DNA of 64,000 bases from Candidatus Bathyarchaeota archaeon (GTDB lineage: Archaea; Thermoproteota; Bathyarchaeia; Bathyarchaeales; Bathycorpusculaceae), in contig CAVUGQ010000005.1 of assembly GCA_963741005.1 (NCBI GenBank), positions 271,965-335,964 of the forward strand, written 5' to 3'. This document shows positions 3,878-30,413 of this stretch, piece by piece; position 1 is the first letter of the stretch; each line of letters opens with the position of its first letter. The notes beneath the pieces are model-generated. The model saw only the letters and a program-made list of their open reading frames with translations, was not told the DNA's origin and made no database searches. Position numbers and translations under genes: made by a program.

Positions 3878-4510
3878 TCAAGTTTTCTTGACTTGGCGGT
3901 ACTTATGGATTAGAGCTACGGTAAGTATTGAGGCTAAAAGAGGCAGTATTATATACCAAGAAAACTCTGGAACAGAAGGAGTTGGGGTTGAATTAGCAGA
4001 TGAAGTGGGAGTTGGATTCATTTGGTATACAGATATAGGAGCACTTCTTCCTGTGTGACCATTTCCGTCGTTTACATAAACTACTATATCAGAGCCAGCC
4101 TCACTCATATTTATAAAACCTCTCCAACTGCCTTCAGTAAATGCACCTGACATGGATGGGCTGATTGTACCTTTACTTGCACTAAAGCTAACATAACCTG
4201 TAAAATTTCTGTCCCAATAACCATTAGCATAAAGTGCAAACAGTCCTACTTCAAAGGTTCTCCCCAAAGTGACATTACTTGGAACCAGAACACTAAAACC
4301 CCCAACTCCAGGGTCCTCTGGAACTGACAGTTCAGTTGTTTGAGGAAATGAAGGTGTAATGGTTACATTTGATGTAGATTGAATAGTGGTAGCCATAATA
4401 GCCATACTATGGTGGTGAAGGGGATTAGCATCTACTAACTCAACTGCTTGTATCCCAATCAACATTGACACAACAAGGATTAAAGCAAATACGGCATATC
4501 TTCTCTTCAT
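3878..4510 (-). CDS. Surface-family protein with HHH motif and PEF-CTERM-like tail (VPEFSWYIILPLLASILTVALIHKYRQVKKT)
   Basis: About 97% identical over most of its length to the 61598..62230 product, in inverted orientation. Signal MKRRYAVFALILVVSMLIGIQAVELVDANP. Confidence 0.75.
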   Translation of the reverse strand: MKRRYAVFALILVVSMLIGIQAVELVDANPLHHHSMAIMATTIQSTSNVTITPSFPQTTELSVPEDPGVGGFSVLVPSNVTLGRTFEVGLFALYANGYWDRNFTGYVSFSASKGTISPSMSGAFTEGSWRGFINMSEAGSDIVVYVNDGNGHTGRSAPISVYQMNPTPTSSANSTPTPSVPEFSWYIILPLLASILTVALIHKYRQVKKT

Positions 4511-5871
4511 TGTTTCCCCTTTCTTCTCCTAAAGTAAACCAAGGAGATTGAAGTGACAGCTATAACCACAATCACAGAAGCAATTGCAATAAGAGCAATT
4601 GAATTTACCCAATAATTAGAATCTATGCCTTGACTTGGAGTTGGAGAATCAAATAGTGGGTTTGTGGTTGGAGTTTCTGTAGTCTCAGTTGGTTTCATTG
4701 TAACAGTTGGAAAGGGTTTTCGTGTTGCGCTTGGTGGTGATTTGGCTGAGTCGGTGCTCATAATTTCTTGCTCTTCACTGCTAACAGAAAAAGTGAATTC
4801 GCCGTCACCGGTTTGAACAACTGAGCATACAATTCCGTTAATCGTGATGTTCCATTGTGGATTTCCAGCAAAATCAAGTTTAATCAAATTTCCAGGGAAT
4901 GACGGGTTAGGAAAGCCGCTTCCCAATGCGTATCCACCATCATTTGTTTGGATGGCAGAGTAGACTAAACCCTCAAATCCGAATTGACTATACGTTTGGT
5001 TCCACACTAAAGCGCCATTCAAATCAGTTTTAAGGATGCAAAGGCTACCGTTCAACACTGACGCTAAGATGTAGCCTCCATCGATTGTTTGAATAAATGA
5101 TTTAGGCTCAAAAAAAGCGCGATCCCAACTGTAGGTTTGTTTCCATAACATTTTTCCTGAGGCGTCAGTTTTGATCATCCAAATGCTTGCATTTGTCTTA
5201 TAAGGGTTAATTAATCCTAAGATTGCGTATCCGCCATCAATTGTTTGTACAACTGACACGCCTTCGCTCGCCTCCTGATTGGCGTACGTTTGATTCCATT
5301 CGGTATAGCCATTTGAATTTAGCTTCCCCAGCCAGCATGCTTTGCCAGTGGAGCTAACCATTGCGAAGCCACCATCACTGGTCACAATTAACGCTTTTCC
5401 GCCATTTAGGTTATTGTAAGTTTGATTCCACAAAATATTGCCCATGCTATCAGTCTTTATAATACCGACCCCCTTGTTGAAGTTGCCTGCAAGCGCATAT
5501 CCTCCATCTGGAGTTTGCACAAGCGAGGTCACATCACCCGAGATTAGGCTGTTCCAATCATTGTTTTTCATTTGGCTAAAGTAGGGTTGAATCCATTGCT
5601 GGTTACCCGCATAGTCCAGCTTAACAAGCCAAGGACCTATGTTTGCAAGGCTAAGTACCGCAGATTTGCCAGCTAATGCGTAGCCTCCATCGCTGGTTTG
5701 AATCATACAATTACCTGAGTACGAATTGGCAAAATCACCCAATTTGAGCGTTTTCTGCCATACAATCGCAGGAGCCGAAGAAGCTGAATCAGCCAAAACC
5801 AAGCACGCTTGAGCTGAAATCGTTATGCATAGAAGTGCGAAAACAATGATTGCTACATGTCTGATTCGCAT
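4507..5871 (-). CDS. Secreted beta-propeller-like repeat protein (about 7 repeats containing QT-DGGYALAG / W-QTY) with T/P linker and C-terminal TM-RRRKGKQ anchor
   Basis: Repeats QTSDGGYALAG, QTPDGGYALAG, VTSDGGFAMVSS, QTIDGGYAILG, QTIDGGYILAS, QTNDGGYALGS. C-terminus SISLVYFRRRKGKQ. Confidence 0.7.
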   Translation of the reverse strand: MRIRHVAIIVFALLCITISAQACLVLADSASSAPAIVWQKTLKLGDFANSYSGNCMIQTSDGGYALAGKSAVLSLANIGPWLVKLDYAGNQQWIQPYFSQMKNNDWNSLISGDVTSLVQTPDGGYALAGNFNKGVGIIKTDSMGNILWNQTYNNLNGGKALIVTSDGGFAMVSSTGKACWLGKLNSNGYTEWNQTYANQEASEGVSVVQTIDGGYAILGLINPYKTNASIWMIKTDASGKMLWKQTYSWDRAFFEPKSFIQTIDGGYILASVLNGSLCILKTDLNGALVWNQTYSQFGFEGLVYSAIQTNDGGYALGSGFPNPSFPGNLIKLDFAGNPQWNITINGIVCSVVQTGDGEFTFSVSSEEQEIMSTDSAKSPPSATRKPFPTVTMKPTETTETPTTNPLFDSPTPSQGIDSNYWVNSIALIAIASVIVVIAVTSISLVYFRRRKGKQ

Positions 5872-5934
5872 GATTACTACTTGAGATAGGTCGCTATAAA
5901 AGACTTTTTGTAAAAGTCTTCTTGATTGGGTTTG

Positions 5935-7167
5935 TCAAGGTTTCTGCACATTAGCAGTCTTTCTACGCCTAATTACAAGAGCAATGGTAAGCGTTACGGC
6001 AAACATGGGTAAAATAGCTGACCAAGATAGCTCTGGAACAGGAGTGGGACTTGGTGTAGTGACAGATGGTGCAGTGGTGCTGGCTATCCAACCCTCGCCA
6101 GGAGAAGTTATGGATCTTGAACCGGCAAGTACATAATCGTTACCATTTTGAATTACGGCGTATGTTCCATCATATGGCAGGAACCATTGTATTTTTCCAG
6201 AAGCTTCAATCTTTGTTATGCCTGATTCAACAGCTACCGCGTAGCTGCCGTCGTTTGTTTTGATGATAGAATGAACTGAAGTTTCGTTAACCTGATTGTA
6301 GGTTTGATTCCAAACAATGGCACCGGTAGAGTCAAACTTAACCAAACATAAAGTCTGGTCTACTATACCTGCTATAATGTAGTCGTTATCTTCTGCCTGA
6401 ATTACTCCAGTTCCTTGGTCATCTTTGGGGGTGCCATAAGTTCGGTTCCACAGCATTGTTCCCGAGGAGTCAGTTTTAACTAGCCACATATCCCACGTGT
6501 CTGTAACATGGGAATACGTTGAACCTGCAATCACATAGCCGCTGTCAACAGTTTGAACCAATGAACCAGCCAGTTCATCGTTTGAGCCACCATAAGTTTG
6601 GACCCACTTTGTATCACCTTTGGAATTGATTTTAGCTAACCAAAAACCTCCTCCATGGAGGCTTCCGGACATTGCATATTCGTTATCGGATGTTTTTATT
6701 ATGGTTCTCAATGATACGTTGTTGTATGAGTGTTTCCACTGAACATTGCCTAAAGCATCCGTCTTAACTAGATCAGCACAAATAAAAATGTAACCGCTAT
6801 CGTTAGCTTGAATAATAGAAGTTACTTGTCCCAAGTTTAGGTAAGCATCGCTTAAGCCCTGTTCCCACACTTTGTTGCCTGAGGAGTCAAGTTTGAGGAG
6901 CCAAGAATTACTTGTAGTTTGCCCAGGTATTCCCAATTCAACTACATATCCACCTAACACATAGCCGCCATCAACGGTGGCGGTCATTGCCTCAATTCCA
7001 CAATAGGTGCCATAAGTATAGGTTTTACTCGACTCAATTGTTGGCAAAGCAACAGATTGGGCTAAAACAAAATTCGAAGAGTGCAGAACGGTTGATGCTA
7101 ATGTGAGAGTTAAAATTAAAACAAACAAGAAAATGCTGCGATTTGCCATGTTTAAAAGATGGGACAA
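5935..7167 (-). CDS. Secreted beta-propeller-like repeat protein, paralog of 4507..5871, PEL-TM-RRRK tail
   Basis: Repeats VDGGYVLGGY, QANDSGYIF, QTVDSGYVIAGS, KTNDGSYAVAV. C-terminus VPELSWSAILPMFAVTLTIALVIRRRKT. Confidence 0.7.
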   Translation of the reverse strand: MSHLLNMANRSIFLFVLILTLTLASTVLHSSNFVLAQSVALPTIESSKTYTYGTYCGIEAMTATVDGGYVLGGYVVELGIPGQTTSNSWLLKLDSSGNKVWEQGLSDAYLNLGQVTSIIQANDSGYIFICADLVKTDALGNVQWKHSYNNVSLRTIIKTSDNEYAMSGSLHGGGFWLAKINSKGDTKWVQTYGGSNDELAGSLVQTVDSGYVIAGSTYSHVTDTWDMWLVKTDSSGTMLWNRTYGTPKDDQGTGVIQAEDNDYIIAGIVDQTLCLVKFDSTGAIVWNQTYNQVNETSVHSIIKTNDGSYAVAVESGITKIEASGKIQWFLPYDGTYAVIQNGNDYVLAGSRSITSPGEGWIASTTAPSVTTPSPTPVPELSWSAILPMFAVTLTIALVIRRRKTANVQKP

Positions 7168-7677: not shown

Positions 7678-8241
7678 ATGAGTGAGAAGAAAACGACTTT
7701 GAGTGTTCCGGCTGCTTATGTGCCGTTGCTGGAAGATATTAGGTTCTTGAAGAGTGATGAGCAAAATCCGAATAGGATGACAATTAAGCAGTTGGAAGAG
7801 GTTTGGTGTAGCCTTAAGAAGCATGGGTGGGCTTTTCCAATTGTTACGGATATGGCTGGTGTTTTTGTGGATGGTGAGCAGCGGGCTCAAGTTTGCAGGG
7901 AGCATGGGGAGTTTTTTGCTCCGGTATTGCGGTTGTCTATTTCTGATGTTGATCGCAGGGTGCTTCGGCAGAGGCTTAACAAACTTAAGGGGAAACATAA
8001 CAAAGAGTTGGATGTTGCTGAGTTTAAGCGGATCGCTGAGCTGGGCGAGAAAGAGGATCTTAAACTGTTGTTGCTGTCTGTTGGGGAGCGGTTGCCGGAT
8101 GATTTTGATGGTAAAAGGGATTCGGTGACTATTCCTGAGACTTACGAGCTCATTATTGTATGTAAAGATGAGACGGAGCAGCAGCGTCTTTATGAGAAAT
8201 TTAAAGCGGAGGGATATACGGTACGGATTTTGACATTGTAA
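7678..8241 (+). CDS. ParB N-terminal-like nuclease domain protein
   Basis: ParB/Srx-like motif region AFPIVTDMAGVFVDGEQRAQVCREHG. 187 aa. Start overlaps the stop of the upstream small ORF. Confidence 0.5.
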   Translation: MSEKKTTLSVPAAYVPLLEDIRFLKSDEQNPNRMTIKQLEEVWCSLKKHGWAFPIVTDMAGVFVDGEQRAQVCREHGEFFAPVLRLSISDVDRRVLRQRLNKLKGKHNKELDVAEFKRIAELGEKEDLKLLLLSVGERLPDDFDGKRDSVTIPETYELIIVCKDETEQQRLYEKFKAEGYTVRILTL

Positions 8242-8279
8242 AATCTTGGAGTCAAGCAGACAGTTTCAGGGCTCAAAGC

Positions 8280-8903
8280 GTGGTTGGCTCATTTACGCTC
8301 CTGGATGTGAAGTTGGAGAAGCGCATTAAGGGTTCACTTCCGATTGAAGAATCGCCTTGGCAGGTAGGCGTGATCGTTGGGCGCAGCGGATCCGGCAAGA
8401 GCAGCATCGCTAAAGAGCTGTTTGCTGAAGCGTACATTCGGGCTTTTGATTATCGCAGTAAGAGTATCCTGGATGATTTTCCAGCTGGCCTGCAGACAGG
8501 TGAGATTACTAAGGCGCTTTCAAGCGTGGGCTTCGCGTCGCCTCCGGATTGGCTCAAAAGCTATGATTGCCTTAGCCAGGGGGAGAAGATGCGTGTTGAC
8601 ATTGCACGTGCGTTATGCTTGGACAAGGACTTGATTGTCTTTGATGAATTCACGTCTGTTGTTGATCGGGAGATTGCTAAGGTTTCTGCGTTTGCCATCG
8701 CAAAAGCTGTTCGGCGTTCTAAAAAGCAGTTCATTGCTGTCACTTGCCATTATGATGTGGTTGATTGGCTTGAACCCGATTGGGTACTCTGTACAGATAC
8801 AATGGAGTTTACCCGAAAAAAAGAAGCAGGCCGCCCGTTAACATCCAAGTTTATCGGTGCGGCTCTAATCTGTGGGAAATGTTTCGGCAGTATCACTATC
8901 TAA
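8280..8903 (+). CDS. Compact ABC-type ATPase (Walker A GRSGSGKSS, signature LSQGEKMRV, Walker B LIVFDEF, H-loop TCHYD). Possibly fused by a -1 frameshift to the downstream GNAT ORF.
   Basis: Motifs read directly. 124-nt overlap with the 8780..9298 ORF in another frame. An A7 run lies at about 8814-8820. Confidence 0.6.
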   Translation: MVGSFTLLDVKLEKRIKGSLPIEESPWQVGVIVGRSGSGKSSIAKELFAEAYIRAFDYRSKSILDDFPAGLQTGEITKALSSVGFASPPDWLKSYDCLSQGEKMRVDIARALCLDKDLIVFDEFTSVVDREIAKVSAFAIAKAVRRSKKQFIAVTCHYDVVDWLEPDWVLCTDTMEFTRKKEAGRPLTSKFIGAALICGKCFGSITI

Positions 8904-9298
8904 GCGGATCTATTGCTAAGGGTTCCAGGTGCTACGTTGCAATGTACCAGGATAAGCCAGTTGGGTTCATCGCGGTTATGCATATTCACATGAAGGCCAG
9001 GTATTACAGGGTGCATCGATTAGTGATTTTGCCTGATTACCAGGGCATAGGCTTAGGCAAAAGATTATTGAATTTTATAGCGGAGCTCTACACTTCACAA
9101 ACGAAAGCGCCCTTCTACATTGTTACCAGCAATCCTCAGATTGTCCGCGGCAACTTGGATCGTTGGAGTGTGAAGCGGTATGGGCATGTGAAGCGGTCTG
9201 ATAAGCAAGATACCAGGATGAACAATGAAATTAAGGCGAGTGTTAGTGCCAAGCGTATTAGCATAACTTTAGAGTACAAACCTGTGAGGGCGCCTTAA
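8780..9298 (+). CDS. GNAT-like acetyltransferase domain ORF (Q-x-x-G-x-G motif YQGIGLGKRLL). True start uncertain; likely entered by frameshift from the ATPase ORF.
   Basis: ILPDYQGIGLGKRLLNFIAELY resembles the GNAT acetyl-CoA-binding motif. Overlap with the upstream ORF. Confidence 0.4.
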   Translation: MGTLYRYNGVYPKKRSRPPVNIQVYRCGSNLWEMFRQYHYLSGSIAKGSRCYVAMYQDKPVGFIAVMHIHMKARYYRVHRLVILPDYQGIGLGKRLLNFIAELYTSQTKAPFYIVTSNPQIVRGNLDRWSVKRYGHVKRSDKQDTRMNNEIKASVSAKRISITLEYKPVRAP

Positions 9299-10375: not shown

Positions 10376-11359
10376 TTAAACGTTCGGTTTGTTTTGAAAG
10401 ATAGTTTTTCGATGCCTTCTATAAATTAACAAAACAAAACTTAAGGCAACAACTACCGCTATAAGAGCAATTATTAGAATTTGTTCGTTAACGGTTATCA
10501 TGGTCGGGGCTGGTGTAGGACTTGGCAAAGGTGTCGGTAACGGACTTTGTGACGGCAAAGGCAAAAACGCAGCAGTTTTCATTAAGTAAATAAAACCCCA
10601 ATATCCTTGATTCAAATAAGAGTTTGCAATGCCCAGACATGCAAGTGCTCCATCCGATGTTTCAATGATGGAAAATATTTTAAAAGGAAAAGTGATGGTA
10701 CCATTATAATAATTGGCAGGACCTGAATAAGTAAAATTCTCAATCCATTGCGTATCGTTATTTGAATCTGTTTTCACAAGAGTAGGAAAAGAAACAAAGG
10801 TAGGAAAAAGATTTACATTTGCTGGTTCAAAGTAAACGAACCCGCCATCGCTGGTTTGAATATTGGGTGAGGCAATGGCTAAGTTTAAGACCGTACTTGT
10901 ATTTTCATACCATTGAATACCCCCTTTTGAATCCAATTTTATCAGTGTAGGCGTAAACTGAAGGGGTATGCCTTGTGCGTTGCCATAATTGCTCCATTCT
11001 CCTGCTATTTCATATCCGCCATCGCTGGTCTGAATGAGGTTTGATGCATGAAATAAATTGATAGTTTTATTCCATTGCATGCTACCTAAAGAATCAAGCC
11101 TGTAAAGAGTTGAAGGAATAAAAAGGGATTGTTGGTAGGATTTGCCGCAATCTAAAAATGCGTATCCACCATCAATTGTTTGAATCAAGTTAGAAACTGA
11201 CTCAGTACTTCCCGACCCATATAATTTTTGCCATTGAGTGGCAGGAGGTGATGTGCTGCTTGAGGTTTGGGCTGAAACTAAAGTAAATTGAAGAATTATT
11301 AAGGACATTATGAAAACAGCGACAAGAAATGAATCGAAACTCTTACCTAAACTACGCAT
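10376..11359 (-). CDS. Secreted beta-propeller-like repeat protein (QT-DGGY repeats) with PT-rich linker and C-terminal TM plus basic tail
   Basis: QTIDGGYAFLDCG, QTSDGGYEIAGE, QTSDGGFVYFEP. C-terminus ILIIALIAVVVALSFVLLIYRRHRK. Confidence 0.65.
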   Translation of the reverse strand: MRSLGKSFDSFLVAVFIMSLIILQFTLVSAQTSSSTSPPATQWQKLYGSGSTESVSNLIQTIDGGYAFLDCGKSYQQSLFIPSTLYRLDSLGSMQWNKTINLFHASNLIQTSDGGYEIAGEWSNYGNAQGIPLQFTPTLIKLDSKGGIQWYENTSTVLNLAIASPNIQTSDGGFVYFEPANVNLFPTFVSFPTLVKTDSNNDTQWIENFTYSGPANYYNGTITFPFKIFSIIETSDGALACLGIANSYLNQGYWGFIYLMKTAAFLPLPSQSPLPTPLPSPTPAPTMITVNEQILIIALIAVVVALSFVLLIYRRHRKTIFQNKPNV

Positions 11360-17378: not shown

Positions 17379-18644
17379 ATGACTCAGACCCAACAGGAAC
17401 AGGAAGTAACGTTGAGGTATTACCCGTTTCCCAAGCAAATGTTGTTTCACCGAGACCGCTACAAAATAAGGCACCGCGCAGTCTTTAGCGGAGTAGGAGG
17501 CGGCAAAACAATTTGCGGCTGCTTCGAAATCTTATCTATGCTCTTAGAAAACAAGAATAGCGTCGGATACATTTTTGAGCCAACCTACAAAATGGTGAGA
17601 CGAATTCTTATTCCCACTTTAGAATCAAAATGGCTGCTTGGGCATCCAATCGATAGTAACCCCATAGTTGAATCTTACAACAAAAGCGAAAACCTCATTC
17701 AATTCATAGATGGTCAATCTTTGTGGTTTGGTGGATTGGAGGAGCCGCAGTTTGCTGAAGGCGCAAACGTCAACGTCGTCTTGTTGGATGAAGCTCAGTA
17801 TATATCGCATTTTGCTGAGAGCCAAGATGTCGTATTACGTAGATTAAGAGGCAGCGGCAAAACCGATAGGGACATTACCAGTAGCATTGTTACTACGTCG
17901 CCGCCTCCGCTGATACCTGATTGTCGCCTCTACGATTTCTATGAGAACCCAGAAAAACGCAACCCTGACAGCCGAGTTTACCGTTGGTCAATGTTGGATA
18001 ACTCGTTTTTGCCTGAGAAGTACAAGCAAGAAATCATTGCAACTCACCATGGCAACTTAGCGAAACGTTTCATAGATGGCTTGTTTGCTCCAGTTGGCAT
18101 AGGAAGTTTTGATTATGATAGCGTTATTCACGAGCGCAAGTACGTCGAGCTCAGTACCCTGCAAAGTGTTGTGTACGGTGTCAACTTCGGATGGACAAAT
18201 CCCTCCGCTATCGTGGCAGTTGGCTTCGACAGCGACGGACGCGCCTACGTGCTTGACGAGTTCTATCAGAACCGAACGCAGACCGAGACGCTTATCTCGG
18301 AACTTAAAGAGATGCTTGCGCAATTTGGGCAGGGTCGCATAATTTGTGATCGCAGTTCACCCGCAACAATCGATATGCTTCACACTGCAGGCCTTAACGC
18401 TGTAGCCGACGAAAGCAAACGTGATGATGGCATACGTGAACTTGGCGGGCGCTTTATTGTGCAAGGCAATGGTAAACCACGCATTTTTATCGCGTCTAAA
18501 TGTGTGAATTTGATTCATGAAGTTATGGTTTACAACTCTGAAATTAAAGAGAATGACCACGCGATCGACGCTCTACGTTATGCCATCATGAGTGTTGTGA
18601 TGGCTAAGCCTGATGTTGAGCCTGCTTGGGTGTTTGGAGACTAA
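17379..18644 (+). CDS. terL: Terminase large subunit
   Basis: Walker A SGVGGGKT, Walker B VVLLDEAQY. C-terminal RNaseH-like nuclease with HAIDALRYAIMS. Confidence 0.85.
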   Translation: MTQTQQEQEVTLRYYPFPKQMLFHRDRYKIRHRAVFSGVGGGKTICGCFEILSMLLENKNSVGYIFEPTYKMVRRILIPTLESKWLLGHPIDSNPIVESYNKSENLIQFIDGQSLWFGGLEEPQFAEGANVNVVLLDEAQYISHFAESQDVVLRRLRGSGKTDRDITSSIVTTSPPPLIPDCRLYDFYENPEKRNPDSRVYRWSMLDNSFLPEKYKQEIIATHHGNLAKRFIDGLFAPVGIGSFDYDSVIHERKYVELSTLQSVVYGVNFGWTNPSAIVAVGFDSDGRAYVLDEFYQNRTQTETLISELKEMLAQFGQGRIICDRSSPATIDMLHTAGLNAVADESKRDDGIRELGGRFIVQGNGKPRIFIASKCVNLIHEVMVYNSEIKENDHAIDALRYAIMSVVMAKPDVEPAWVFGD

Positions 18645-20416
18645 AATTTATGGCGAGTAATCCTGAGAATCCAGTTACTTTACTGCGTGATGGCGGTATG
18701 GTAGTGTATCCTACGCAGCAAGAGGATGCTATAGCAGGCAGTAGTATACGGATTCCCTCTGTTTCTACGGCAATGGGCGCGGAGTTTGGGGAAGCAATCA
18801 CAGATGACAACCGCATATTCGCTGCGACTCGTGAGCCTATTGCAGGGTTCTTAACTGGCGGCTCCGATGGGCAACGGGGTTTTCCTAAAGACATCGTGGA
18901 AAAATGGTTCACCATAAACGATGTAACAACTAAAGATCCTGATCCAGAGCTTGATCGGGCACTGCAAAAAGAGTTTAGGCGCCTCAAATACAAAAGAGTT
19001 TTGACAGGTTTTGTTGGAGCCAAATTTCTTTATGGCAACACCTTAGTTGTCGGCTCATACGACGACGTCACTAAGCTTTCAGTGTTAGAGACTGAGAAGC
19101 CGCAGTCAGCTGCTTTGATGCAGCTTGAAGTTTACCCAAAAAATAGCTATAGCGTTTTTAGCAAAGAAACAAACCAGGAGAATTTGCGTTACGGTTTGCC
19201 ATTGATTTATCAGGTTAGTGATGGTTCAAGAACTTTCCATGTGCACTGGACCCGATGTTTTGAGTATGTTGGAGTTAGTATTCTTGATTTGATTTGGGAT
19301 GACCTCACCTGCGGTCGTAATATTCGGTGGGGTGTGGGGCAATGGGTTTATCGCACTGGCGGCGGCTTTGCGGTCATAAAGTTTCCAAAAGAAATCGCTG
19401 GAGTTCCAACTACTAAAGAGAAGTTGAGTGCGTGGGCAAATAGTAAAGAATGGAGCAACATCACACATCGCACCTCAATCTGCATTTTAGAGGGGATGGA
19501 GTTTGATTTTAAAGGTGCCTTGGGCGCAGCGCTTAACCCAGAGCCGTTTTTTGACACTAACACAAAACAGATTGCGAAAGCCACTGGTATCCCAAAAAGC
19601 ATCTTGGAGGGTGCTGAAGCTGGGGCGCTTACTGGGTCGGAGAAGAATGATCAGCAATACTACAAGAAAATTAGCGGGGAACAAAGTGAACTAGATGATT
19701 TGAACCGCTGGGTAATAGATCAACTTGAACCTGTACGTCAAACGGTGACTGTTAACGTGGATTCAGCTAAGTCTGTGGGGTCAATTTTGAAGCGTATGTT
19801 CCATAAAGCATTGGCTGTTACAGTGAAAGATCAACCTGACCCTGTTGTAGTTGATTACGATATAGTTTGGAATAGCGGGTTTGAATTATCCAAGCTTGAT
19901 GAAGCTCGGGCAGATTTGATTGAGGAGCAAGCAAACCAAACAAGGCTGCAGTATAAAACTGTGGATGAGGTTCGAAGCGACAATAATCTGAATCCTTTGC
20001 CGTTGGGTGCTGGTGAAGTTGTTATTTCTTTAAGTAAATCGCCGTCTTCAGGTCAATTTCCAAGTAGCTTGTCTGGTATCACGGCGTCAAATTCGACTGG
20101 AACTGTAAATGCTGACGATGCAGGTTCGCAGTTGCCTAATATGCGCAATTTGCTCAAGCCTATTATTAAGCAGGTTTTTGATGGGCATATGACACATGAT
20201 TTAGCGCTGCAGCAAGGCCTCACACTGGTAGAGTTCTATTGCAACACCGAAAAAGAACGTGCCCTCGATTACGTCCGCGGCAAATTCCAAAACCCCACTT
20301 TGCAGATTAGCCCAGAGCAAGAATGCGCATTTCAACGCCAAAAAACACGCTATACAAAAGACTTCACATCCATCTTGAAGAAAGCTGAGCGATTAGCGAA
20401 GGCTAAACTTCCATGA
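18626..20416 (+). CDS. Portal protein (putative)
   Basis: 596 aa. Immediately after TerL, with overlapping stop and start. Confidence 0.6.
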   Translation: MGVWRLKFMASNPENPVTLLRDGGMVVYPTQQEDAIAGSSIRIPSVSTAMGAEFGEAITDDNRIFAATREPIAGFLTGGSDGQRGFPKDIVEKWFTINDVTTKDPDPELDRALQKEFRRLKYKRVLTGFVGAKFLYGNTLVVGSYDDVTKLSVLETEKPQSAALMQLEVYPKNSYSVFSKETNQENLRYGLPLIYQVSDGSRTFHVHWTRCFEYVGVSILDLIWDDLTCGRNIRWGVGQWVYRTGGGFAVIKFPKEIAGVPTTKEKLSAWANSKEWSNITHRTSICILEGMEFDFKGALGAALNPEPFFDTNTKQIAKATGIPKSILEGAEAGALTGSEKNDQQYYKKISGEQSELDDLNRWVIDQLEPVRQTVTVNVDSAKSVGSILKRMFHKALAVTVKDQPDPVVVDYDIVWNSGFELSKLDEARADLIEEQANQTRLQYKTVDEVRSDNNLNPLPLGAGEVVISLSKSPSSGQFPSSLSGITASNSTGTVNADDAGSQLPNMRNLLKPIIKQVFDGHMTHDLALQQGLTLVEFYCNTEKERALDYVRGKFQNPTLQISPEQECAFQRQKTRYTKDFTSILKKAERLAKAKLP

Positions 20417-22479: not shown

Positions 22480-22989
22480 CATTCATCCAAAAAAGGCGCT
22501 ATTCGTGTTTTGTATGTAGACGACGACCCTTATAGTATAGAGATTTCCAAGCAGATCCTAATGGACATCGATGCCCGCTTTGAGATTAGCGACGCTTGTT
22601 GTGTGGATGTAGCCTTCAAAAAACTGGAAACTGGGCAATATGATGTTGTTGTTTCTGATTATGAATTGCCTCTTAAAAATGGCTTAGAATTTCTAAAGGA
22701 GTTGCGTAAAAATAAAAATGAAATTCCGTATATTTTGTTTACGGGTAAGGGCAGAGAAGAAGTTGCGGTTAAAGCTTTGAATTTAGGTGCTGACAGTTAC
22801 ATAAGCAAGATCGGTTCTACAAAAACAGTTTTTTTCGAGTTGGCGGATGCAATAAACAAAGCAATTCAACGCAAGAAATCAAAAGAGCTGCTTGCCGGAT
22901 CAGAGACAAAATATCGCACTAGTAGAGAAATCACTTCAAGGAATATTAGTTACAAAAGTAGGTCCACTCAGGCTAGTTTTTGCAAATAA
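22474..22989 (+). CDS. Response-regulator receiver (REC) domain. N-terminal part of sensor 1, separated from the kinase ORF by a frameshift or overlap.
   Basis: VLYVDDDPYSIEISKQIL...VVVSDYELPLKNGLEFLK...FTGKGRE. The paralog 25460..28480 has REC-PAS-HK in one frame. Confidence 0.75.
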   Translation: MAHSSKKGAIRVLYVDDDPYSIEISKQILMDIDARFEISDACCVDVAFKKLETGQYDVVVSDYELPLKNGLEFLKELRKNKNEIPYILFTGKGREEVAVKALNLGADSYISKIGSTKTVFFELADAINKAIQRKKSKELLAGSETKYRTSREITSRNISYKSRSTQASFCK

Positions 22990-24796
22990 TGCTATGGGAA
23001 AAATCCTGGGTTACTCTTCGCAGGAATTACTGTCCTTATCGCCCCAAGGAATTATGGGCTTGATTTATCCTGAAGACAGGGCTATTTTCTTTAAACGAAT
23101 GGAAAATCGCTTGCAAGGTGAAGAGCCAGAGTCATTCCACGAGTTTCGTGCAGTGAGAAAAGACGGCTCAATAATCTGGATGAACGCGCTTGCAAATCGA
23201 ATTGAGTTTGAAGAGCAACCTGCAGTACAGGGCGTTTTCTTAGATATTGACGAACGCAAGAAACTAGAAGCTACAGTTAAAGAAAAACTGGATATGCTTG
23301 AAGCCCTCACAGAAAACATCGGCGCGGGCTTTGTAACCATAAGCAAAGATTATCGTGTAATGTACGCGAATAAATTCGTAAAAAACAATTTAGGCAACGT
23401 AGAGGGAAAATTGTGCTATGCAACCCTTAACACTTTGGACCACATTTGCCCTGATTGCGGAGTAAAAAAAGTCTTCAAAGAGGGAGTCGCTAAAGACTCT
23501 CACGAATATTCTCAAATAGGATTAGATGGCAAGCGGTTTTTCGTTGACATTATTGCCACTCCCCTTAAAGATAAAGATGGAAATGTGACTGCAGCATTAG
23601 AGTTTATTGTAGACATAGGTGAAAAAAAACGCTTACAGCAAAAACTGCAGACAAACGAGGCAAAGTTTAGAGCTATAAGTGATTCTGCAATTGACGCTAT
23701 TTTCATGTTTGATGAAGAAGACAAAATCACTTACTGGAATCCTGCCTCTGAAAGAATTTTTGGATTTACTGAAGAAGAAGTAGTTGGCGAGAAAGTAAAC
23801 GCGACACTCGTGCCTTCTCGCTTTCGCGCAGAGCACCTGAAAATCACTTCGGAATTGGGCAAAGTCAAGAACAAGGAAAATGCTGGTGAGACTCGCGAGT
23901 TGCCTGCTCTGCGAAAAGATGGTGAAGAATTTTCAATGGAGCTTTCTATGGCGCCACTGCAGCTAGAAAATAAAGGGTACTTCGTAGCTATAGCAAGAGA
24001 TGTGACTGAGCGCAAAAAAGCTGAAGAGCTCCGAAAAGTTTTGGAGAGAAAAGTAAACGACTATTCAAAACACTTGAAATGCATGGTTGAATTGAGAACT
24101 GTCCAGTTAAGGGATGCTAATGAACGACTCGTCAAGTCTGAACGCCTAGCCGCTATAGGCGAATTAGCTGGCATGGTCGGTCATGACCTGCGTAACCCGC
24201 TTGCAGGAATCAAAAACGCTGCCTACTACTTGAAGAAGAAAGGCACAGACATTTCTGAAACTAAATCTAAAGAAATGCTTGAAATAATCGATAAAGCCAT
24301 TGGCCACTCAGATAGCATCATCAACGACTTGCTAGACTACTCAAGAGAGATGCATCTGGAACTAACAAAATATCTAGCAAACAATCTTGTAGATGAGGCT
24401 ATTGGCATGATTCAGGTTCCAGAGCGAATACAAATTATAAATAACGTTCCGGATACGATTTGGATTTGGGTCAATGCTGATAAGATGATGCGAGTTTTCA
24501 TAAATTTTATCAATAATGGAATTGACGCAATTCCTGAGAAAGGAACACTCATAATGACAAGTTGCCAAACAAGAAACTATATGAAAATCAAGTTTTCTGA
24601 CACAGGCAAAGGCATACCTGAAGAAACTTTCAAAAAGCTTTTCACGCCTCTGTTCACCACTAAAGCACAGGGTATGGGTTTTGGCTTAGCAATATGCAAA
24701 CGAATCGTAGAAGCGCATGGAGGCGCCATAACCGTGAAAACAGCCGTAAAAAAGGGAACAATATTCACAATAGCTTTACCCCTAAGGAATAGTTAA
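22892..24796 (+). CDS. Sensor histidine kinase 1 (3 PAS, HisKA, HATPase_c). One PAS carries the Cys triad C-x9-C-x2-C.
   Basis: H-box AGMVGHDLRNPLAGI. G2 box KAQGMGFGLAICKRIVEAHGG. PAS-linked RDVTERKKAEE segments. CYATLNTLDHICPDCG. Confidence 0.8.
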   Translation: MPDQRQNIALVEKSLQGILVTKVGPLRLVFANNAMGKILGYSSQELLSLSPQGIMGLIYPEDRAIFFKRMENRLQGEEPESFHEFRAVRKDGSIIWMNALANRIEFEEQPAVQGVFLDIDERKKLEATVKEKLDMLEALTENIGAGFVTISKDYRVMYANKFVKNNLGNVEGKLCYATLNTLDHICPDCGVKKVFKEGVAKDSHEYSQIGLDGKRFFVDIIATPLKDKDGNVTAALEFIVDIGEKKRLQQKLQTNEAKFRAISDSAIDAIFMFDEEDKITYWNPASERIFGFTEEEVVGEKVNATLVPSRFRAEHLKITSELGKVKNKENAGETRELPALRKDGEEFSMELSMAPLQLENKGYFVAIARDVTERKKAEELRKVLERKVNDYSKHLKCMVELRTVQLRDANERLVKSERLAAIGELAGMVGHDLRNPLAGIKNAAYYLKKKGTDISETKSKEMLEIIDKAIGHSDSIINDLLDYSREMHLELTKYLANNLVDEAIGMIQVPERIQIINNVPDTIWIWVNADKMMRVFINFINNGIDAIPEKGTLIMTSCQTRNYMKIKFSDTGKGIPEETFKKLFTPLFTTKAQGMGFGLAICKRIVEAHGGAITVKTAVKKGTIFTIALPLRNS

Positions 24797-25230: not shown

Positions 25231-25464
25231 CATCATTCTTGAACCAACACACCCCAACTTTAAACAGTTGAGGCAAACTCACCTATATTGATCGCCTTGG
25301 CTGTTGCATGTTTTTTTAATTGTGTTTCTAGTTGAGGCAGGCTGTTTTCATGTATTCATAATTCATAAGTGACTTATTACCCGTTCATTGACTAGTTGAG
25401 TTGGGGTAATTCTAATACAGTATCTCGATCAGAATGGTATAGTTGTAGAAGTATCTGATTTGGC
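25231..25464 (+). repeat. Promoter-region direct repeat, copy 2
   Basis: Near-identical to 22244-22479. Confidence 0.85.
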
Positions 25465-28400
25465 GGTTTCAAACAAAAAGAGTGCTATTCATGTTCTGCA
25501 TGTTGATGACGACCCGTCCATTCAAGAGATAACAAAACTAATGCTAACTGATATGGATAGCTGCTTTGAGATTGATCAGGCTTGCTGTGTTGATGAAGCT
25601 TTCAAGAAGCTTGCAGCCAAAAACTATGATGTTGTGGTTTCTGATTATGAGATGCCCCAAAAAGACGGCTTACAGTTTCTAAAAGAGTTGCGTGAGGCAA
25701 AAAACGCTGTTCCTTTCATATTGTTTACTGGGAAGGGTAGGGAAGAAGTATCCATCAAAGCGTTGAATCTGGGCGCGGATGGTTACTTCCACAAGCAAGG
25801 CCTACCCGAAACCGTCTACGGCGAACTCGCACACGGCATAACTCTTGTTACTGAAAAAGCAAAAGCAAAAACAGCCTTAGAGGCGAGCGAAAAACGATAC
25901 CACACGCTTATGGATAATGCAGCAGAAGCAATTTTTATTCACGATATAAAAGGGAAATTATTAGATGTTAATCTGCAAGCATGCAAAAATCTACAGTATA
26001 CAAGAGAAGAACTGCTCTCAAAAAGTATTAAAGACATATCCATTACCGCAGAAGATGGAAAACAAATAGGTGAAATATGGTCCAAAGTGCTTACAGGGCA
26101 CACCATCAATCTACAGAGCATCCAAATACGTAAAGACAAAAGCATATTTCCAATAGAGGTAACTTTGAGCACTATATCTCTTGATAAAGAAAAATTAGTA
26201 ATTGCTTTGGTGCGAGATATCACCGAACGCAAAAAAGCTGAAGATGTTCTGCGAAGAAGTGAGCAGAGGTATCGAGAGCTATCTAATTCTTTGCCGGAGT
26301 TGGTTTTTGAAACTGACTTAACCGGAAAAATTATCTATATTAGTCAACGAGCTACCGATTTCACTGGCTTCACTAATGAGGAGCTTAAAGGAAGGAACAT
26401 GTTGGAGTTCGTTATTCCTGAAGAACGAAAAAGAGCAATAGAGAACATGAAGAGATCCTTAACTGGTGAAAATTTGGGTTCGACTGAGTATACCCTTTTC
26501 AAGAGAGATGGTTCAACTTATCCCACCTTCATTCGAACCGCTCCCATCATTTCCGAAAGCAAAGTAACTGGACTCCGAGGACTAGTCATCGAAATAACTG
26601 AACGCAAGAAAGCTGAAGATGATTTGAAGTTTTCCAAGGAGTTTAGTGAGAGCGTAATTAACTCGGTAGATGAGGTGCTTCTTGTAATTGACGTTAATGA
26701 TTTCAGGATAGTTGATGCCAATTCTGCAGCTTTAAAGCAAACAGGCTGCAGTAAAGCAGAATTGACTAAGAAAACATGCTACGCCATGACGCATCATAAA
26801 CCTGTCTCTTGCCAGCCTCCAAATGATATTTGCCCCATTCATGAAATGCTACAAACCGGTAAACCAGTCAAGGTTGAACACAAACACTTTGACAAAAATA
26901 ACAATGAACTATCAGTGGAAGTTTCGGTTTACCCAATTAGAAACGTTGAAGGCAAAATAATTCAAGCAACCCACATTTCAAGAGATATAACGGAAATCAA
27001 AACGGATAGAGTGATGTCAAAGAGTGCTTGTAATCAGCTTAATTCCTTGTTTTTGGCAATGAATGAAGGATTTTGCCTACATGAATTAGTTTATAATAAG
27101 TTTGGCAAAGCAGTTGACTACACGATTCTAAACGCCAACCCGGCTTATGAAGAAATATTGAGATTAAAGAAGAACGAGGTTATCGGGAGAAGAGGGTCTG
27201 AAATTTATGGTTCAAATCAGGCACCCTATCTGGAATTATATGTAAAGGTTGCTGAAACCAAAGAACCAATCATTTTTGAAACATATTTTGACCCTCTAAA
27301 AAAACACTTCAGTATCTCTGTTTTTTCACCAAACAAAGATCAATTTGCAACAGTATTCACAGACATTACTGACCGCAAAAACGCTGAAGAAAAATTGAAA
27401 AATTTAAAGGCGTTTGATGAAAGAATAATTAGCTCTCTTAGTGAAGCTCTTTTAGTAATTGATCCTGATAACTATAAGATTATCACCGTCAATGACGAAG
27501 CACTAAAACAAATGAAGATGAAAAAGGACGACGTTATTGGAAAAACATGCTATGAAATGACGCACCACAGAACAACCCGTTGCCAACCTCCAAATGATAT
27601 TTGTCCAATTCAAGAAGTGATAGAAACTGGCAATTCCGTAACGGTTGAGCATGTCCATCTTGACGAAAACAACAATCAACGAATTGTAGAAGTCTGGGCT
27701 CGTCCTGTAATAAATCCAGAAGGCAAAAACGTGATTATTCACGTAGCCAAAGACATCACTGAACGTAAAAGAGCTGAAGAATCAATGAACCGGATGATGG
27801 ACCAGTTGGTGTTGGTTAATGAGAAGTTGGGTGTCGTTGGCAGCTTGACTAGACATGATGTCCGTAACAAGCTTTCAACTGTGACTGGTTATGCGTATTT
27901 GCTTAGGAAAAAGCATTCTGATCAAGCAGATATCATTGAAGGGCTTGGCAAAATGGAGCAAGCTGTTGGGGAGTCGATGAAGATGTTTGATTTCGCTAAA
28001 ATGTATGAACAGTTAGGGGTAGAAGAACTGACATTTATAGACGTTGAAGCTAAACTAACTGAAGCAATTACATTGTTTTCAGGTTTGCTGCCAAAGATAA
28101 TAAATAAATGCCACGGATTAACGGTCTTAGCTGATTCATTTCTTAGGCAAATGTTCTACAATTTCATTGATAATACGAGAAAATACGGCACAAAAACCAC
28201 AACTATAAAAGTGCACTATGAAAAGGCGGACCACGATAGTTTAAGGTTGGTTTATGAAGATGATGGTGTAGGTATATCTTTAGAGAATAAAATGCGTCTT
28301 TTCAGGGAAGGTTTCAGCACAGGCGGCAGCACAGGCTTTGGACTATTCCTCACCAAAAAGATGATAGATGTTTATGGCTGGGCAATTGAAGAGAATGGTG

Positions 28401-28480
28401 AACCAGGCATAGGCGCCAAATTCATCATAACCATTCCAAAACTAAACAAAAATGGAAAAGAAAACTATCAAATTACCTAG
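25460..28480 (+). CDS. Hybrid sensor 2: REC plus multiple PAS plus HisKA-like plus HATPase_c (1006 aa). Two tandem PAS copies each carry the Cys triad C-x10-C-x6-C-P-I-H.
   Basis: REC VLHVDDDPSIQEITK...VVVSDYEMPQKDG. TCYAMTHHKPVSCQPPNDICPIHE and TCYEMTHHRTTRCQPPNDICPIQE. H-box LTRHDVRNKL. G2 GSTGFGLFLTKKMIDVYGW. Confidence 0.8.
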   Translation: MAVSNKKSAIHVLHVDDDPSIQEITKLMLTDMDSCFEIDQACCVDEAFKKLAAKNYDVVVSDYEMPQKDGLQFLKELREAKNAVPFILFTGKGREEVSIKALNLGADGYFHKQGLPETVYGELAHGITLVTEKAKAKTALEASEKRYHTLMDNAAEAIFIHDIKGKLLDVNLQACKNLQYTREELLSKSIKDISITAEDGKQIGEIWSKVLTGHTINLQSIQIRKDKSIFPIEVTLSTISLDKEKLVIALVRDITERKKAEDVLRRSEQRYRELSNSLPELVFETDLTGKIIYISQRATDFTGFTNEELKGRNMLEFVIPEERKRAIENMKRSLTGENLGSTEYTLFKRDGSTYPTFIRTAPIISESKVTGLRGLVIEITERKKAEDDLKFSKEFSESVINSVDEVLLVIDVNDFRIVDANSAALKQTGCSKAELTKKTCYAMTHHKPVSCQPPNDICPIHEMLQTGKPVKVEHKHFDKNNNELSVEVSVYPIRNVEGKIIQATHISRDITEIKTDRVMSKSACNQLNSLFLAMNEGFCLHELVYNKFGKAVDYTILNANPAYEEILRLKKNEVIGRRGSEIYGSNQAPYLELYVKVAETKEPIIFETYFDPLKKHFSISVFSPNKDQFATVFTDITDRKNAEEKLKNLKAFDERIISSLSEALLVIDPDNYKIITVNDEALKQMKMKKDDVIGKTCYEMTHHRTTRCQPPNDICPIQEVIETGNSVTVEHVHLDENNNQRIVEVWARPVINPEGKNVIIHVAKDITERKRAEESMNRMMDQLVLVNEKLGVVGSLTRHDVRNKLSTVTGYAYLLRKKHSDQADIIEGLGKMEQAVGESMKMFDFAKMYEQLGVEELTFIDVEAKLTEAITLFSGLLPKIINKCHGLTVLADSFLRQMFYNFIDNTRKYGTKTTTIKVHYEKADHDSLRLVYEDDGVGISLENKMRLFREGFSTGGSTGFGLFLTKKMIDVYGWAIEENGEPGIGAKFIITIPKLNKNGKENYQIT

Positions 28481-29257: not shown

Positions 29258-29393
29258 GGTGATGTAATTTGATTAGGCAATTTGTTGTAGACTTCGCTGT
29301 TTTGGAAGATAGCAAAATCATCCTGGATGATGATAAATTCCTTGTTGTTAAGGCAGGGTGATAGCCTCCGAAATTGTGCATAAGTACAAAGAT
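29258..29393 (+). repeat. Upstream and 5' block of the protease gene, repeated at 21916-22030
   Basis: Near-identical nucleotide block. A 2-nt indel puts the N-terminal extension out of frame here. Confidence 0.8.
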
Positions 29394-30413
29394 GGCATGG
29401 CATACAAGCCTGCTGATGAGCTTGAGAAGGCTGCTTGGACTGCTGAGGGCAGATGGGTAAAAGCATTAAGTCACCCTGTAAGTGACCAAATCAGAAGTGT
29501 AAACGACATAAATGGGCGCATGGAAAACCCCCGCTTCAGAAAAGATCTCAATGATCCCAAAACTAATAGGCCTTGTAGACGGGGCATAGAGGTAGATATA
29601 CGTTTTTTTAAGGACCGCACCGGCAAAGACGTACTTGATAAAATCAAGAGTGGGCAGTTGAAAGATAATAGTATAGGGTTTAGCTGCGATAAGGATGTGA
29701 CGCCTGGCGAATTTCAGGGGCAAAAATACGATTACGTGCAGCGCAACATTTGCATTGACCATTTGGCTGCGCCTATTGAGCAGGGACGTTGCCCTTCGCC
29801 TTACTGTGGCATAAACGTGGATTCTGATGAAGAGGATAAGCCGATCGTTGAAGTTCAAGATGCAAACTTGGGTATAAATTACCGTTTTGATTCAGCCAAA
29901 TTCACTTCCGAAAAAGCTGCGGAGTGGGTGCAGAAGCGAACATACAAAGACTGTCCCGTATGCACGCGCATCGAAGAAGTTGGTTTGTTAACTGCAGCTC
30001 AACGACTCTACAAGCAGTATGGCGCTGATGTTTTGGAAGTTGTTGAAGGTCACGCTTTGCCGCCTGTTGTACCTCAGAAGGTACTTGTTAATTTTAGAGA
30101 TGTTTCTGACGCTATGACTCCGGTGCAGATAGACGCGAAAATTCAGGAACTACATAGCCAATATGATGCTTTGCGTGTGAAGGAAAAAGCGTTCTATGAA
30201 ACTCAGAAACTTGAGCCTTCTCCACAGCTGCAGAAGTTGTATCAGCAAATGGGCGACATCGACAACGAAATTAAAGCGTTCACTGAACTTAAAGCTAAGA
30301 AAATAGTTGAAGCCAACACTGATTCAGCCGTAGCCGATGGCAAAGACGATGTTATCTTGAAGAATCGGCAGGCTCTCAAAGACCTCTATAGCTTAACAGA
30401 GATTTTTACTTAA
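29358..30413 (+). CDS. Putative head-maturation protease fused to a coiled-coil scaffold-like C-terminus
   Basis: Positioned between portal/MuF and capsid. C-terminal 100 aa are coiled-coil-like (KIQELHSQYDALRVKEKAFYETQKLE...). The family assignment is by position only. Confidence 0.4.
   Translation: MIASEIVHKYKDGMAYKPADELEKAAWTAEGRWVKALSHPVSDQIRSVNDINGRMENPRFRKDLNDPKTNRPCRRGIEVDIRFFKDRTGKDVLDKIKSGQLKDNSIGFSCDKDVTPGEFQGQKYDYVQRNICIDHLAAPIEQGRCPSPYCGINVDSDEEDKPIVEVQDANLGINYRFDSAKFTSEKAAEWVQKRTYKDCPVCTRIEEVGLLTAAQRLYKQYGADVLEVVEGHALPPVVPQKVLVNFRDVSDAMTPVQIDAKIQELHSQYDALRVKEKAFYETQKLEPSPQLQKLYQQMGDIDNEIKAFTELKAKKIVEANTDSAVADGKDDVILKNRQALKDLYSLTEIFT

Follow-up and report, generated by a model that had tools for sequence, protein, structure and literature searches.

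A candidate -1 recoding site joining ABC ATPase and GNAT reading frames in a provirus gene of Bathyarchaeia

The stretch of DNA analyzed here (64,000 nucleotides (nt), referred to as the window) was taken from the genome of a Candidatus Bathyarchaeota archaeon (assembly GCA_963741005.1, contig CAVUGQ010000005.1, positions 271,965 to 335,964 of the forward strand). It contains a head-tailed provirus, in which genes for a large terminase subunit (terL), a portal, a prohead protease, a capsid-like protein and a tape-measure-like protein were recognized. The present work concerns a module of this provirus composed of a gene for a ParB-like protein, an open reading frame (ORF) for an ABC-type ATPase, and an ORF for a GNAT acyltransferase domain lying in the -1 frame relative to the ATPase. 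Comparison of sequences indicates that the ABC and GNAT frames are one gene of the head-tailed Bathyarchaeia provirus. The coordinates of the features are listed in Table 1.

The Walker A, signature, Walker B, and H-loop motifs are all present in the ABC ORF. GRSGSGKSS, LSQGEKMRV, LIVFDEF, and TCHYD, the four motifs listed in an earlier sequence-only reading of the window, were all found in its translation, and the Pfam match agrees with them. The GNAT identity of the second ORF, proposed in the same reading, was borne out by two Pfam families, and the overlap of 124 nt with GNAT at -1 corresponds to the ORF coordinates as it had described them. The run of seven adenines (A7), which it had placed at 8814-8820, is actually located at 8816-8822. 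The ABC-frame codons at the run are ACC CGA AAA AAA GAA, so that the run, as A_AAA_AAA, is a heptamer of the X_XXY_YYZ type in perfect phase. A slip by -1 at this point reads AGA AGC AGG CCG CCC GTT and joins ...MEFTRKK to RSRPPVNIQVYRCG..., with TRKKRSRPPVNIQVY as the predicted fusion-specific peptide. The predicted fusion comprises 339 amino acids (aa) when counted from GTG at 8280 and 358 aa from ACG at 8223. The zero-frame product consists of the ATPase with a 26-residue tail (EAGRPLTSKF...SITI); in all main-clade copies the zero-frame stop lies 26 codons past the run.

To assess the conservation of this arrangement, a genome scan (one genome per species) was used, which returned 80 loci (L001-L080), nearly all from metagenome-assembled genomes of Bathyarchaeia. 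According to the tblastn frame, GNAT is at -1 in 68 of the 75 archaeal-type loci, the window included, and these loci stem from assemblies of several independent projects. The scan also returned four bacterial homologs, which lack an A run and have GNAT in frame. In an alignment of 67 loci the run does not vary (columns 13-19); it is at least A7, mostly exactly A7, and its 3' edge always falls at the same codon boundary. In the -1 copies with A8 or A9, preceding bases have been substituted by A with no insertion, so that frame and phase are kept. Metagenomes were scanned with a pattern tolerant of A7 or A8 (inserted A) and of a 6- or 7-nt spacer; all 120 stretches obtained (102 unique) showed the A7, 6-nt-spacer, -1 state. 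The recurrence of the A7/-1 arrangement in 67 other genome loci and in the 120 metagenome stretches is far beyond chance. No mixture of frame states of the kind expected at a contingency locus was found in these two sets. In-frame archaeal relatives differ by one extra base, with A8 in L082 and L168 and A10 in L085 and L169; in L002 and L004, both from MFD assemblies, the additional base lies in the spacer. Of the 68 -1 copies, 64 lack ATG, GTG, and TTG in the -1 frame ahead of the run, and in most copies this frame is open there for merely 0-3 codons, which makes the TTG at 8780 of the window incidental. Copies with extra disruptions were observed in L012, L050, L057, and L072. The ParB/ABC-GNAT module occurs several times per Bathyarchaeia genome (five loci in PLYI01, five in CAVZIW01, and two in OY969706.1), and these genomes therefore hold multiple related proviruses or provirus remnants.

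Table 1. Coordinates of the module, its putative recoding signals, other provirus genes of the window, and the ABC-GNAT junctions in Firmicutes phages.
Feature	Position	Strand	Remarks
ParB/Srx N-terminal-domain gene	7678-8241	+	187 aa; PHROGs and solved-structure profile; directly upstream of ABC
GGAGGG, Shine-Dalgarno-like	8207-8212	+	10 nt before probable ACG; also encodes ParB Glu-Gly
Probable ACG start of the ABC(-GNAT) gene	8223-8225	+	overlaps ParB 3' end by 19 nt
ABC ATPase ORF as mechanically called	8280-8903	+	207 aa; PF00005; stop TAA 8901-8903
GNAT ORF as called	8780-9298	+	172 aa; PF13508, PF00583; -1 frame relative to ABC
Slippery heptamer A_AAA_AAA	8816-8822	+	zero-frame codons AAA 8817-8819, AAA 8820-8822
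GNAT-coding part in the -1 frame	8822-9298	+	first -1 codon AGA 8822-8824; stop 9296-9298
Spacer, 6 nt	8823-8828	+	sequence varies, length constant among relatives
Predicted stimulatory hairpin	8829-8864	+	minimum free energy fold
170-aa ORF, weak helix-turn-helix	9340-9852	+	sits where relatives have the small terminase subunit; sequence not conserved
Large terminase subunit (terL)	17379-18644	+	PF03237, phrog_2
Portal	18626-20416	+	PF06381, phrog_146
Prohead protease	29358-30413
Capsid-like protein	31539-32432
Tape-measure-like protein	40307-41632
Streptococcus prophage 315.4	L083 5440-5545		-1 junction
Lactococcus P335	L084 5500-5610		-1 junction
Streptococcus phage MismyG	L165 3520-3625		-1 junction
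Oenococcus Vinitor-27	L166 1950-2045		-1 junction

A search with the predicted 339-aa fusion revealed two populations of homologs. The first comprised full-length fusions of 340-380 aa, 45-73% identical to the query over about 99% of its length and carrying both the ABC and GNAT domains; some sources label them 'ABC-type ATPase with predicted acetyltransferase domain'. The second consisted of many ATPase-only proteins of 196-227 aa with 74-97% identity, several of them labelled Bathyarchaeia. Fused homologs, for which the sequence-only reading had proposed a search, exist as in-frame proteins, and they align unbroken over the junction, where TDTMEF.RKK meets R.PP; K181, encoded by the last AAA of the run, is invariant. 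Residues 13-333 of the fusion correspond to profile positions 29-348 (of 357) of the phage family phrog_11143 (E 4.4e-94). Among viral-contig and phage copies, 78 of 82 are in frame. The AlphaFold model of the fusion has a mean pLDDT (predicted local distance difference test score) of 81.6. Between the run and the zero-frame stop the -1 frame encodes RPPVEL.VYRCG..W.MFRQYHY, for which the in-frame fusions have a homologous counterpart at this place; its RPPVEL.VYRCG..W.MF part forms the first GNAT strand (189-194) and helix (198-206) in the model. That the homologs might always be two separate genes with a different GNAT start, an outcome which the earlier reading had allowed for, was not observed: the distant ones are colinear in-frame fusions, and the close ones keep the -1 state without a GNAT start.

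Both parts of the gene are under purifying selection. Pairwise ratios of nonsynonymous to synonymous substitution rates (dN/dS) amounted to 0.04 in ABC and 0.11 in GNAT, and synonymous sites were almost saturated (proportion of synonymous differences, pS, about 0.8). In 57 copies that diverge by 40-70% in amino-acid sequence, GNAT is open over 150 codons or more. The GNAT part was left uncalled by one gene caller in a complete Bathyarchaeia chromosome, and in L081 (10621-11328) the protein was called only up to the zero-frame stop. Because gene callers stop at this codon and often omit GNAT, hundreds of public entries are 206-207-aa 'transporter ATPase' proteins; these entries probably stand for the 339-358-aa enzyme. 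Automated annotation systematically truncates this ABC-GNAT protein.

Synonymous diversity was calculated for 57 codon-aligned copies, and codon fixation was counted in 52 main-clade sequences. The mean pairwise synonymous difference was 0.53, and the minimum of the gene was found at codons 176-183 and 185-197 (0.07-0.16). Both lysine codons of the run, K180 and K181, are AAA in 52/52 sequences each (gene-wide usage 54%). Downstream of them, P185 is CCG in 52/52 (gene-wide usage 17%), P186 is CCC in 50/52 (21%), R193 is CGG in 51/52 (15%), C194 is TGC in 52/52 (68%), and G195 is GGC in 52/52 (39%). The fixed codons from P185 to G195 supply bases of both arms of a predicted hairpin. Synonymous diversity rises again at codons 197-201, while the zero-frame overlap extends to codon 207; the nucleotide signal is therefore local and not a result of the entire tail being coded in two frames.

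The hairpin begins 6 nt past the heptamer, and in it GGCCGCCCG (8829-8837) pairs with CGG (8855-8857) and GCGGCU (8859-8864), leaving U8858 bulged. Its predicted free energy (dG) is -15.8 kcal/mol in the window, with a clade median of -18.9 and a range from -13 to -22. The 36-nt windows of the gene have a mean dG of about -4.5 with a standard deviation of about 3, which places the hairpin about 5 standard deviations lower. In all 52 sequences it was the most stable 36-nt window of the gene or was outdone by few others (median 1, maximum 9), and 87-91% of hairpin cells are paired across sequences. Of the conserved slippery site and structure for which the sequence-only reading had proposed to look, the heptamer was found fixed in 67 loci, and in the main clade it is followed at 6 nt by a predicted hairpin with fixed synonymous codons. 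Rfam gave no match over 8600-9100. Seven divergent -1 copies (L054, L069, L073, L075, L077, L078, and L152) have A9 and no hairpin (dG -1 to -4), while the copies lengthened to A8/A9 by upstream substitution retain it, like the A7 copies. The in-frame relatives of this A9 subclade have A10 (L085 and L169) or A8 (L168). The A9 subclade suggests a second, hairpin-independent way of slipping.

A second synonymous dip was observed at 8882-8903 (GNAT codons 202-208), ending at the zero-frame stop, with TTT in 52/52, CGG in 46/52, TAT in 50/50 of Tyr codons, TAT in 52/52, and CTR-A in 49/52. A stop in the shifted frame occurs at the same place in all 78 in-frame viral homologs too, and so this dip is not explained by the frameshift. 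Selection on the length of the ATPase-only protein was considered for the conserved zero-frame stop (TAA or TGA inside YHYL) and rejected as not specific, as the 78 in-frame homologs share it. Two long-range pairings were also tried and rejected, one between GGAGTTT (8804-8810) and the hairpin loop, the other between CCGAAA at the run and TTTCGG at codons 202-203. Neither is kept in the variants, the window included.

Recoding of either kind, ribosomal or transcriptional, is highly probable from these sequence data. A programmed frameshift had been one of the options named in the sequence-only reading, and it is the one strengthened here by the phase of the run, the heptamer, the hairpin, the synonymous fixation, the lack of a GNAT start, and the conservation across the clade. 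Within it, hairpin-stimulated ribosomal -1 frameshifting yielding ABC-only and ABC-GNAT products is our preferred explanation, held with moderate confidence. The succession of heptamer, 6-nt spacer, and predicted hairpin corresponds to the classical arrangement of -1 ribosomal frameshift sites. Ribosomes in the ATPase frame would meet A_AAA_AAA with the GC-rich hairpin at the mRNA entrance. A fraction of them would slip back by one base, read AGA AGC AGG CCG CCC..., and proceed through GNAT to 9298; the remaining ones would stay in frame and stop at 8901-8903, giving the ATPase-only protein with its short tail. ATPase-only and ATPase-acyltransferase subunits would probably be made in a fixed ratio determined by the site, and mixed dimers would be possible because ABC ATPases act as ATP-sandwich dimers. 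A ribosomal rather than transcriptional slip, the product ratio, and the biochemical function are the parts of this scheme that we infer from the sequences.

Several points weigh against this explanation. Compensatory covariation was not found in the lower and extended stem, which is nearly invariant, and RNAalifold on the full heterogeneous set of 67 junctions gave no consensus structure. The stem changes observed were C-to-U giving G.U in only two sequences and one-sided changes in the upper stem; as all of them are one-sided and structure-compatible, the case for the hairpin rests on its stability, spacing, and synonymous fixation. In E. coli, A_AAA_AAG is more shift-prone than A_AAA_AAA, according to the dnaX literature. 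Pure runs of A7-A10 are also classic sites at which the polymerase slips during transcription, with the same protein as the outcome. The tract does change by single bases, since the in-frame relatives have run+1 (A8 and A10). As for the enzyme function, it may be as proposed below on the basis of a published prediction and gene context.

Transcriptional slippage is the main competitor, although we regard it as unlikely. Archaeal RNA polymerase would stutter on the template T-run, turning A7 into A8 in some transcripts and giving the same fusion, ...RKKRSR.... Long A runs are an established slippage signal (PMC5009743). The site is indeed a pure homopolymer, the in-frame relatives are exactly run+1, and the A9 relatives without a hairpin are more easily served by polymerase than by ribosome. 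Slippage of this kind needs no RNA hairpin, yet the hairpin is the most conserved nucleotide-level feature of the A7 clade and is absent precisely where the run is A9. In addition, A7 is short for efficient polymerase slippage, the known programmed cases having about A9 or more. The comparison of A7 and A9 copies fits two solutions, namely ribosomal slippage at A7 with the hairpin, and hairpin-independent slippage, probably by polymerase, at A9.

The remaining explanations dispense with recoding; among them, separate genes, sequencing error, and decay were rejected. Two separate proteins, with the GNAT domain initiated internally (at TTG 8780, at M201, or by reinitiation after 8901-8903) and the overlap reflecting gene packing, appear improbable. 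In their favour, a TTG is present at 8780 in the window, possible restart codons lie beside the zero-frame stop in the YHYL motif, and phages P335 and 315.4 are annotated with separate GNAT genes. However, nearly all -1 copies have no -1-frame start upstream of the run, as noted above, a start at M201 or later would delete the conserved first GNAT strand and helix, and the fixed heptamer and hairpin would be left unaccounted for. Variation at the DNA level is very improbable, whether as a homopolymer sequencing or assembly error hiding a true A8, which the sequence-only reading had also raised, or as a phase-variable GNAT switch. Homopolymers are error-prone, and a few relatives (the six in-frame loci named above) are in frame by one extra base; against this, the same -1 state was obtained in 68 genome loci from independent projects and in 120/120 length-tolerant metagenome stretches, and random switching predicts a mixture including the +1 state and no selection on a hairpin. 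Decay of a degenerating provirus, with the frameshift as an inactivating mutation in a former fusion gene, was the third option of that reading and is scarcely credible: the module is about 7.5 kb of minus-strand genes away from terL in the window and the four copies mentioned above have extra disruptions, but GNAT stays open in 57 diverged copies under purifying selection (dN/dS 0.11) with saturated synonymous sites, and an identical 'mutation' would need to be fixed and then preserved clade-wide.

The ABC gene itself probably does not start at the called GTG 8280 but at ACG 8223, located 57 nt upstream. The ABC-frame segment 8223-8279 encodes TDFDIVKSWSQADSFRAQS, which is homologous to the N-termini of canonical homologs; in sister clades, the aligned starts are ATG (8), TTG (8), and GTG (1). 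ACG occupies the aligned start codon in 43 loci, the window included. An in-frame stop is present two codons upstream of it in 28 of these 43 loci, and 29 of them have no canonical start within 20 codons after it. For codons 7-17 after ACG, the ratio of nonsynonymous to synonymous differences (pN/pS) is 0.21 in the ABC frame versus about 2 in the other frames, the pattern of a sequence that is coding in the ABC frame only. GGAGG at positions -15 to -10 is invariant or nearly so in the 43 loci, including the synonymous G of GAG (43/43), and may play a role in initiation. A ParB-to-ABC -1 frameshift polyprotein was ruled out, as no slippery heptamer occurs in the available 7-codon window; for this reason, ACG initiation, or reinitiation coupled to the ParB stop, would be the preferred mode.

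At the same boundary of ABC and GNAT, phages of Streptococcus, Lactococcus, and Oenococcus have GNAT at -1 without an A run (Table 1). In Streptococcus and Lactococcus the candidate slip site is G_GTT_TTT with CCCCCAC after it, and in Oenococcus it is A_AAG_GGC; no start codon occurs upstream of the conserved GNAT N-terminal segment in these phages. Their ABC and GNAT parts are annotated as separate genes in GenBank. It may tentatively be proposed that recoding at the ABC-GNAT linker is recurrent and selected, with several independent origins, for the assembly of mixed subunits in a set ratio, and that the Bathyarchaeia gene is ACG-started as well; we regard this combined proposal as possible, with the balance somewhat against it. 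If it is true, one archaeal virus gene would show two departures from standard decoding.

The ParB-like nature of the 187-aa protein, suggested in the sequence-only reading, was confirmed by matches to phrog_498 (1e-14) and phrog_620 (1e-9) in PHROGs and by a profile of 28 homologs, which matched solved structures of ParB, Noc, and a Sulfolobus ParB-domain nuclease at 4e-9 to 1e-5 (top matches 7bnk at 4e-9 and 5k5d at 3e-7). In its VDGEQR motif, G66 is invariant and R69 nearly invariant. Pfam gave no match for this protein at E<=0.1, and Pfam and NCBIfam gave nothing specific for it or for the 170-aa ORF. The ParB gene is directly upstream of ABC in about 70 loci and also in phages. The closest viral contig, L086 (IMG/VR, 27 kb), has ParB, ABC(-1)GNAT, an ORF of about 170 aa, and terL in succession, and its module is 92-95% identical to that of the window; the terL directly after it is 44% identical to the window terL. 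The same order, with an ORF of about 170 aa and then terL, was found in L168 and in several genome loci; in the window, about 7.5 kb of minus-strand genes lie between module and terL. The layout recurs in bacterial phages, namely in Lactococcus P335, in Streptococcus 315.4 and MismyG, and in Gordonia phage Jace. Streptococcus 315.4 and MismyG have the order ParB, ABC, GNAT, ASCH, a small ORF in the slot of the small terminase subunit gene (terS), and terL. In Jace, gp85 is ParB, gp86 an in-frame ABC-GNAT protein, and gp87 an aspartate decarboxylase.

Location immediately ahead of terS/terL, as seen in relatives as well as in bacterial phages, fits the suggestion of a packaging-initiation module made in the sequence-only reading. 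Its remark that no known system matches does not hold, as the fusion belongs to phrog_11143, a known phage family. The alternative of a defence module found no backing in PADLOC, which gave no known system and no full-length defence match, only partial matches to generic ABC and methyltransferase-ParB entries. A solved-structure search with the fusion returned only generic ABC domains. In a passage of PMC7824862 that cites Iyer et al. 2013, a GNAT coupled to an ABC ATPase is predicted to acylate a DNA base. Judging from this family prediction and from gene context, the enzyme is probably an ATP-dependent acyl (acetyl) transferase on DNA, and it would cooperate with the ParB-like protein when DNA packaging begins.

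The genes that follow the module differ among lineages. In Gordonia phage Jace, the decarboxylase gene (L167 4047-4472) comes immediately after ABC-GNAT, and in Streptococcus phages ASCH genes come immediately after GNAT (L083 5996-6373 and L165 4057-4425). Such lineage-specific next genes may point to the donor of the acyl group and to functions that read or remove the modification. Other cargo was also observed in the window. Two large PAS/histidine-kinase genes (22892-24796 and 25460-28480) and a helix-turn-helix gene, unusual for a morphogenesis block, lie between the portal and protease genes. Three predicted secreted or anchored proteins composed of 'T(S)DGGYA' repeats, with no Pfam match, are encoded on the minus strand (4507-7167 and 10376-11359); their genes lie on either side of the module and occupy some of the space before terL. 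In L057, L059, L061, and L071, genes for similar proteins occur at distances of up to about 2-5 kb from the module. A module of ParB and ABC-GNAT beside the packaging genes of both bacterial and archaeal tailed viruses, widespread and uncharacterized, deserves attention; that it apparently requires two isoforms gives a clue to its mode of action.

Among known systems, the closest in signal is the E. coli dnaX cassette, which combines A_AAA_AAG, an upstream Shine-Dalgarno-like element, and a downstream hairpin and gives the tau and gamma products (see also PMC5009743). The present site resembles it in its homopolymeric A heptamer, its X_XXY_YYZ phase, a predicted stable hairpin following after about 6 nt, and two products that share the ATPase N-terminal part in a set ratio, as predicted here. 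GGAG, located 8 nt upstream of the heptamer (8804-8807; GAG preferred in 42/46), is a candidate dnaX-like element. In dnaX, however, the shift truncates the protein, whereas here the shifted product would be longer and gain an enzymatic domain; moreover, the last base of the heptamer is A instead of G, and the host is an archaeon or archaeal virus.

In Archaea, the only experimentally shown -1 frameshift, according to a 2021 review, is that of the alpha-L-fucosidase gene fucA1 of Saccharolobus solfataricus (PMC8211752), in which a second ORF at -1 is accompanied by an A_AAA_AAT heptamer, a putative stem-loop, and single-ORF homologs (PMC8211752, PMC1616953). The likeness is considerable, since both cases are archaeal and have two ORFs with the second at -1, an A-rich heptamer, a putative stem-loop, and single-ORF homologs. 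In contrast to fucA1, described only in S. solfataricus in the literature consulted, the present signal occurs in nearly 190 sequences with selection on its RNA elements, is located in a provirus gene, and joins two distinct domains. Next to one demonstrated archaeal case (PMC8211752), it is a much better documented candidate, offering nearly 190 variants, a canonical heptamer, a hairpin under measurable selection, and natural controls in the A8/A10 in-frame relatives and the A9 hairpin-less relatives. No report of this frameshift or on COG2401 was found in the literature searches.

As a protein, the predicted fusion agrees with phrog_11143 in its full-length match, motifs, upstream ParB gene, and position before terS/terL; it differs in that most members are plain in-frame fusions, whereas the Bathyarchaeia copy needs recoding. 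No experimental characterization of any member was found in the literature searched. The succession of a P-loop ATPase module and a GNAT domain in one chain is shared with TmcA/NAT10, and of the 50 best Foldseek matches to the model, TmcA (2zpa; ranks 10 and 14, E about 2e-7) was the only two-domain structure combining an ATPase with GNAT. The ATPase here is, however, ABC-type and not helicase-like, and the match has a low TM-score (0.29-0.30). ASCH proteins, YqfB among them, hydrolyse N4-acylcytosines (PMC6972931); the ASCH neighbour of the Streptococcus phages is absent next to the module in the window. As leads and not as tests, the TmcA fold match and the ASCH neighbour may fit an ATP-dependent acyltransferase on nucleic acid. 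The G/GT-type tail-assembly chaperones, for which a -1 frameshift is predicted in archaeal tailed viruses, haloarchaeal ones included (PMC8211752), likewise present a viral -1 frameshift with short and C-terminally extended forms; they differ in the gene concerned, in belonging to a tail rather than a packaging module, and in adding a structural extension rather than a catalytic domain. The protein family and the type of signal are thus both already known, and it is the archaeal case that is unusually well supported.

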